From: Escherichia phage mEp506
DNA: 40,128 bases
Sequence record: PV340542
Direction: 5' to 3' (one strand)
Position numbers and translations under genes: made by a program. The notes under the pieces were generated by a model. It was not told the origin of the DNA. It ran no database searches and worked only from the letters and a program-made list of their open reading frames with translations. Position 1 is the first letter of the stretch. Each line of letters opens with the position of its first letter. Positions 75-1,343 of this stretch are shown here, in pieces.

Positions 75-1147
75 TCATTTGTCGATTTCAATTTTGTCCC
101 ATTCCCGTCCACGGCTGTCCCTATACCGCGCCGCCATTGAATCTGATTTATGCCCGAGAAGACGTTGAGCAAACTTATCGCCAATCTGGTTCCGGTATAG
201 CCTCGCTGACAGGCTACGCAGTTCATGGAATGTTGGCGGGTTTCCATCAAATGAGAGTCCAGATGCATTTCTCGCCTTTGTAAAATACTTTGATACTGTT
301 TTCGGGGAAAGCGGATCGTGATGCTTTGATGCGATTATAGTTTCACTGCTGCTGGCCTCCCTGCATTGCTGTAGTGTATCAGCCAATGAGATATTGAGCG
401 CGTCAATCGTTAGCGTTAGTGGAATGGCGAGTTTAGCCCCTGTTTTACTCTGTTCAATGTGAAGATGGTTGTCGTTTATGTCTGACCATTTCATTCTGCA
501 CAAATCGCCTACTCTCTGCCCTGTAACGACAGCCAAATCCATTGCCAGTCTCAGCCAGATTGGGAGCGGTTCGGCTGCATGGTATATCGCGACATATTCA
601 TTAGCTGTCAGTCTTGAACGCCTTACTTCTGATTTTGCTGTGCGGGTTGCTGTTACCGGATTCGTAGCCACATGCCCCTCGGCTATTGCCTCACGAAAAA
701 CGTCAACAAGGGTTGACCTGATTAATTTTGCGGAAGCCGATTTGCCTTCTGCTACGTAGGTGTTTAGCATTGCTGCCACCTCTTTCGTTGATATGTCAGC
801 GAGCGGTTTGTCCGGCAATTTTCTTCGGATTGCTCTGATTTTGCTGGCGTAGTCGAGTAGAGTTTTCGGCCTGATACCCCTCTCGCTGAGGATTGTTTCA
901 TATCGGTCAAGCCACGCATGAAGAGTGATTGCGTCAGCGCCTTTAATTCTGTCTATCAGTGACTCACGCCTGTTCCCGGATAGCAACTCAATGTTGGCCT
1001 GTATAGCTTCAGTGATTGCGATTCGCCTGTCTCGGCCTAATCCAAACTCTTTACCCGTCCTTGGGTCCCTGTAGCAGTAATATCCATTGTTTCTTATATA
1101 AAGGTTAGGGGTAAATCCCGGCGCTCATGACTTCGCCTTCTTCCCAT
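75..1147 (-). CDS. int: lambda-type tyrosine integrase Int, apparently frameshifted near codon 13
   Basis: ORF 75..986 matches lambda Int from ...QANIEL onward. The N-terminal MGRRRSHERRDL is encoded from the ATG at 1147 in another frame; a C4 run (plus-strand gggg 1108-1111) where lambda has C5 breaks the frame. Confidence 0.8.
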
Positions 1148-1343
1148 TTCTGATCCTCTTCAAAAGGCTATCTGTTACTGGTCGATTTAAGTCAACCTTT
1201 ACCGCTGATTCGTGGAACAGATACTCTCTTCCATCCTTAACCGGAGGAGGGAATATCCTGCACTCGCGTACCCATCGACGAACTGTTTCAAGGCTTCTTG
1301 GGCGCCGCTGGCGTGCGTTCCACTCCTGAAGTGTCAAGTACAT
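1125..1343 (-). CDS. xis: excisionase Xis (72 aa)
   Basis: Internal Met of ORF 1125..1433 gives MYLTLQEWNARQRRPRSLETVRRWVRECRIFPPPVKDGREYLFHESAVKVDLNRP..., near-identical to lambda Xis as recalled. Confidence 0.9.
   Translation of the reverse strand: MYLTLQEWNARQRRPRSLETVRRWVRECRIFPPPVKDGREYLFHESAVKVDLNRPVTDSLLKRIRNGKKAKS

Follow-up and report, generated by a model that had tools for sequence, protein, structure and literature searches.

The integrase gene (int) in the 40,128-nt stretch of DNA analysed here (Escherichia phage mEp506, record PV340542; hereafter 'the window') is broken between codons 13 and 14, where one C of a C run is lacking. Three things were observed directly: the base is missing, bases are missing in the same manner across the window, and one added base restores each affected gene exactly. 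From this pattern we infer a technical cause: the int frameshift is probably an artefact of homopolymer under-calling, with int likely to be intact in the organism. The technical cause is favoured because long runs are only ever shortened, in coding and non-coding sequence alike, with several essential genes broken and everything else untouched.

The sequence of the window is that of a lambdoid prophage belonging to the HK97/HK022 group (Hendrixvirinae) and bounded by its attachment sites. Its left end, read on the minus strand, runs from xis through int to the P′ arm of an HK022-type attachment site; the core ctttaggtgaa directly precedes position 1, and the far end (…cctttaggtgaaaaag, positions 40114-40128) consists of the attR core ctttaggtgaa and, after it, a few bases that do not belong to the phage. 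In the int-xis region, identity is 98.5% with HK022 and 99.6% with mEp235, and a near-identical int-xis module adjoins torS in E. coli CUPF12. Outside int-xis, modules like those of mEp234, HK542 and HK022 (95-99% identity) make up a mosaic; among complete E. coli genomes and phage records, none spans ≥80% of the window parts searched.

A neighbouring protein of 160 aa is a widespread mosaic module, whose matches lay in unrelated prophages only. The 303-aa Int remnant, the 1155-aa variant of J, a 705-aa piece of the tape-measure protein and the 430-aa tail fibre had no exact match on record. Three minus-strand ORFs at 5697-6827, downstream of the repressor gene (cI, 7242-7946), are ∼99% identical to a block for which the mEp234 record PV340539 gives the annotation HicA/HicB/HicC; the block looks like a toxin-antitoxin-like moron within the immunity region. 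Coordinates of the features discussed below are collected in Table 1.

Table 1. Features of the int-xis region, the holin gene and the shortened runs (positions in the window)
Feature	Position	Strand	Evidence or comparison
P′ arm side of HK022-type att site (attL remnant)	1..74	-	matches HK022 attP region and CUPF12 prophage attL beside torS
int remainder, codons 14-357 and stop (77-75), in xis frame; core-binding and catalytic domains	75..1109	-	translation, Pfam
int 5′ fragment: ATG, 13 native codons, 4 out-of-frame codons (LTFI), TAA	1094..1147	-	direct reading
C4 run (G4 on plus strand), site of one-base loss; C5 in relatives	1108..1111	-	alignment
G5 to G4 (C5 to C4 on minus strand)	1108	-	in int
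xis (excisionase, 72 aa), intact; overlaps int start by 23 nt	1125..1343	-	Pfam
TTGC-N6-TTGC, putative cII-binding-type motif at pI promoter position, intact	1356..1369	-	direct reading
Holin S gene, truncated by private 14-bp deletion (TAACGAGCGTGTTT missing), junction 15876/15877	15657..15896	+	alignment
G8/G11 to G6, two or more bases short, intergenic, upstream of terS	19078..19083	+	relatives G8, G8, G11
T7 to T6, just upstream of terS	19149..19154	+	T7 in four relatives
G5 to G4, just past major capsid gene stop	24314..24317	+	G5 in four relatives
T7 to T6, terminator tail upstream of major tail gene	25830..25835	+	T7 in HK542
T7 to T6, terminator tail downstream of major tail gene	26334..26339	+	T7 in HK542
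A8 to A7, tape-measure gene (27096-30375), frameshift no. 1	29117..29123	+	A8 in HK542, ETEC1749
C5 to C4, tape-measure gene, frameshift no. 2	30012..30015	+	five bases (CCCCC or CTCCG) in relatives
G5 to G4, tail gene K (31473-32182), frameshift	31772..31775	+	five bases (GGGGG, TGGGG or GGGTG) in relatives
T7 run upstream of J, preceding C missing	33595..33601	+	vs HK022
G6 to G5, near 3′ end of host-specificity gene J (33613-37163)	37033..37037	+	G6 in four relatives

The int-xis region as written and with one C added

The initial annotation had identified an HK022/lambda-type int with xis upstream, and the identification holds. The xis product belongs to Pfam family Exc (PF07825, E 1.7e-40), and an excisionase is annotated at the same place in HK022 and mEp235. 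A cognate excisionase gene upstream and an attachment site beside int are both expected of an HK022-type integrase, and both are present. The TTGC-N6-TTGC motif stands just upstream of the xis ATG, at a site annotated as the lambda cII binding site in mEp235; a promoter and terminator scan of positions 1-1700 added nothing decisive.

The int start had been placed at an ATG overlapping the xis stop. This ATG, at 1147-1145 of the minus strand, precedes the xis TGA by 20 nt, and the overlap of 23 nt is the one annotated in HK022. Read from this codon, the frame gives MGRRRSHERRDLP (13 native Int residues), then LTFI and a TAA at 1096-1094; that the frame runs into a stop had been noted correctly, with the four codons LTFI skipped. 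The ORF thus ends after 17 codons, where a single ORF of ∼356-357 codons is expected of a lambda/HK022-type Int. The remainder of Int, beginning (P)NLYIRNNGYYCYRDPRTGKEFG..., was said to lie in the frame of ORF 75..986, and translation agrees; this is also the frame of xis. Over positions 72-1343 of the minus strand, xis and Int codons 14-357 share one frame, and the sole stop between them is the xis TGA (1127-1125).

If the sequence is taken as right, the normal start yields no functional Int. Synthesis of a truncated Int by a downstream restart was rejected: the first ATG, GTG or TTG in the Int frame is TTG 986, and inspection by eye found no Shine-Dalgarno-like sequence ahead of it.

Insertion of one C produces a 357-codon int ORF, the product of which is identical at 357/357 residues to Int of HK022, of mEp235 and of the CUPF12 prophage. 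Besides the missing C, the int coding sequence has no nucleotide difference from the CUPF12 prophage, one from HK022 and two from mEp235, all of them synonymous; against these intact homologues there are thus no non-synonymous changes and at most two synonymous ones. With the repaired protein equal to HK022 Int at 357/357 residues, the gene has none of the appearance of an old pseudogene.

Pfam assigns residues 1-68 of the repaired protein to the arm-binding domain (Arm-DNA-bind_1, PF09003, E 7e-29); the remainder carries the SAM-like core-binding domain (Phage_int_SAM_1, PF02899, E 4e-14) and the catalytic domain (Phage_integrase, PF00589, E 3e-41), in the domain order of HK022/lambda-type Int. 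The closest solved structures are those of full-length lambda Int (5j0n, 1z1g and 1z1b), with which the remainder aligns end to end. HK022 Int (AAF30377.1), a heterobivalent tyrosine recombinase of the lambda family, is among the best-studied site-specific recombinases. It is the same protein once one C has been added (357/357), the remainder as written is 100% identical to the matching part of this experimentally studied enzyme, and HK022 also shares with the window the 23-nt xis-int overlap, the cII-type site ahead of xis, and the arm and core of the attachment site. Unlike the HK022 gene, the window ORF is split at codon 13/14 by the missing C.

The initial annotation further held that the arm-binding domain would be lost. 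This is correct for the largest conventional ORF as written (TTG 986, 303 aa), which lacks the domain according to Pfam; the whole PF09003 coding sequence is present in the window, but without a joined start codon as written. As a statement about biology the loss fares poorly, given ∼10 further private one-base contractions in the window.

That a frameshift at a C run separates the int start from the remainder was confirmed by alignment, with C5 in 125 of 127 aligned loci and C4 in the window, at codon 13/14. In HK022, mEp235 and the CUPF12 prophage C5 lies within a 170-nt stretch that is otherwise identical to the window. The one-base difference at 1108-1111 is definite against all close relatives, and chance is not at issue. 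The variant is private and the relatives agree on the longer run, which is how a homopolymer error at int would be expected to look.

No exact match to the C4 28-mer was found in species-representative genomes, IMG/VR or metagenome contigs; the C5 version had at least 120 matches in IMG/VR alone. Among ∼2000 complete E. coli genomes with the stretch (RefSeq), C4 was seen in only two, ET220 and FELIX_MS516. Their C4 copies belong to different lambda-type int genes at different sites, and in both genomes int is marked as frameshifted by NCBI PGAP. Further private run contractions occur within 5 kb: two in ET220 and seven, three of them inside int, in FELIX_MS516. Judged by these comparisons, C4 at the int site is a recurrent event that accompanies the same error signature and not an inherited allele. 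In FELIX_MS516 exo, beside int, is likewise annotated as frameshifted.

Could the sequence be correct and Int be made by recoding? The ribosome could slip by -1 on the C run, or it could read through the xis UGA to give a Xis-Int fusion; the frame geometry, with the xis TGA as the only stop on the way to Int codons 14-357, is all that speaks for recoding, and the fusion would be without Int residues 1-13 of the arm-binding domain. Moreover, Int is one continuous ORF in all 125 C5 relatives, so there is no conserved recoding signal, and A CCC C is no canonical X XXY YYZ slippery heptamer. A C4 run is also too short for transcriptional slippage. As the window-wide contractions account for the lesion with no special mechanism, we consider recoding extremely improbable, and programmed frameshifting or read-through of int was rejected as unsupported in view of the continuous ORF in relatives. 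One could speculate that the missing C is real and that occasional read-through or slippage, by supplying a fusion of Xis with Int or small amounts of Int, makes a leaky, self-limiting excision switch for a prophage that is otherwise fixed at torS-torT; the chance of this seems to us very slight.

One-base losses throughout the window

Alignment to relatives revealed 10-11 private one-base contractions at base runs in 40 kb, several of the sites being judged against one to four relatives only, and no private expansion. Eleven events in 40 kb correspond to about one per 3.6 kb, a rate inside the range reported for unpolished long-read assemblies. The losses affect intergenic runs as well as coding ones. 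The G run at 19078-19083 is hypervariable: G6 in the window, G8 in HK542 and CUPF12, G11 in the mEp234 record.

Five losses fall in genes (int, the tape-measure gene twice, K and J), four of these in essential tail genes. A tblastn comparison with the ORFs of relatives found the tape-measure gene distributed over three frames, and K as well as J over two; in J, the frameshift at 37033 replaces the last ∼42 residues. Repair of both tape-measure sites gives a product of 1093 aa, the length found in HK542; one base added to K gives 236 aa, a length as in relatives, and one base added to J gives 1183 aa, the length found in HK022. At each coding site the extra base is present in all relatives, though its identity varies, and therefore the frame is conserved everywhere but in the window.

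The tail assembly chaperone pair at 26373-26774 and 26798-27061 has the same arrangement as the pair of HK022, which is expressed by translational frameshifting according to the HK022 annotation. The pair (26373-27061) is a normal feature and is not to be tallied as a lesion.

The dependence on run length is sharp. Among runs comparable with relatives, none of 1111 A/T runs with an ancestral length ≤6 is shortened in the window, as against 4 of 9 with a length ≥7; for G/C runs the counts are 0 of 575 at ancestral length ≤4, 3 of 18 at length 5 (plus the K site at 31772, outside that tally) and 2 of 2 at length ≥6. Shortening is thus confined to G/C runs ≥5 and A/T runs ≥7. Length dependence alone cannot part error from mutation, because long runs are prone to polymerase slippage in vivo as well. 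Taken together, though, many events in the same direction, in coding and non-coding sequence and beyond a threshold of run length, are what one would expect of homopolymer error. When HK022, HK542, mEp234 and the CUPF12 prophage were each used as query in the same test, each had 0 private contractions.

Residual homopolymer-length indels are described in one report (PMC8812927) as the commonest error of long-read-only bacterial assemblies and as a cause of frameshifted gene calls; a second report likewise ties homopolymer-length errors to frameshifted gene calls in such assemblies (PMC9262707), and many database pseudogenes, according to a third, are assembly artefacts (PMC11017572). The window shares with long-read (or flow-based) homopolymer errors the exclusive occurrence of one-base contractions, their place in long runs both coding and intergenic, their being private to one assembly, and repair by a single base. 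A check of 100 private substitutions for clustering at Dcm/Dam motifs, a nanopore-type methylation signature, found none; they have the look of ordinary mosaic divergence.

We propose that long runs were shortened at some step of sequencing or consensus building, which would have taken one base from ∼11 runs over 40 kb, and that the five under-calls inside genes (one each in int, K and J, two in the tape-measure gene) would mimic frameshifts. In that case the phage itself would produce an ordinary heterobivalent Int of 357 aa, complete with its arm-binding, core-binding and catalytic domains, and Int together with Xis would excise the prophage from the torS-torT attachment site. At 1108-1111 we expect C5 on resequencing.

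The holin deletion and prophage decay

One lesion differs from the class of long-read homopolymer errors: the holin gene carries a 14-bp deletion, which is no homopolymer event. The truncated holin ends in …LAYNRLHRY*, with the break in the third transmembrane segment, and restoring the 14 bp gives a lambda-type holin of 107 aa. The deletion junction was absent from ∼1000 complete E. coli genomes with the holin and from IMG/VR. Judged from the sequence, the deletion may be a real lysis-defect mutation. Since it resembles a genuine mutation, and further lesions of a prophage could be genuine if one of them is, the int frameshift has to be considered also as a real and very recent mutation in a prophage decaying in place.

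On this alternative, slippage removed one C from int, and what has befallen K, J and the holin and tape-measure genes is real too; Int translation would end after 17 codons without an arm-binding domain, there would be no excision from torS-torT, and the element would no longer be under selection. The lesion is, after all, present in the sequence as given, the holin gene, with its private non-homopolymer deletion, points to one real inactivating event or more, and homopolymer slippage is a real mutational hotspot. According to surveys of the O157 Sakai prophages, E. coli reportedly often harbours defective lambdoid prophages in which int or a tail gene has a single frameshift; as the sequence stands, the window shares with such grounded prophages the attL/attR flanks and frameshifts in int, lysis and tail genes.

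Known decayed prophages, however, usually also have substitutions, insertion sequences or larger deletions, whereas the lesions of the window are nearly all one-base run contractions. A decaying pseudogene would be expected to have a mixed spectrum of lesions and relaxed constraint; we found a single non-homopolymer lesion, the holin deletion. There was no nonsense substitution in real genes having a relative at ≥85% identity among four full-length relatives, and no insertion sequence or large deletion in the window. Slippage in a decaying element would also have to account for ∼11 contractions against 0 expansions, for the shortening of intergenic runs and for an int that is otherwise without nucleotide change against an intact homologue. 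Four of the contractions lie within ∼3.6 kb of tracts with no substitution against the best relative, although substitutions normally outnumber indels; in E. coli mutation-accumulation studies the excess of base substitutions is about ten to one. Finally, the four control genomes are without such events, and none of the other sequences searched (species-representative genomes, IMG/VR and metagenome contigs) has inherited the C4 allele. We thus regard decay in place as unlikely, though it deserves to be kept in mind on account of the holin gene, and homopolymer under-calling as the probable cause of the int frameshift.

Implications for the prophage

Before accurate reads confirm them, the breaks in int, K, J and (at two sites) the tape-measure gene are not to be taken as pseudogenes, or as marks of a defective phage, and any gene-level analysis of the window sequence would first have to have its run lengths corrected. 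Alone among the lesions, the 14-bp holin deletion merits a separate check. A true lysis defect could mean that the prophage is decaying, in which case real slippage mutations could be present among the run contractions.

Neither outcome would be new. If not real, the int frameshift belongs to a known class of assembly errors; if real, it is ordinary pseudogenising slippage; unable to excise, the lambdoid element would be grounded in its host for good, a situation that is common and well understood.
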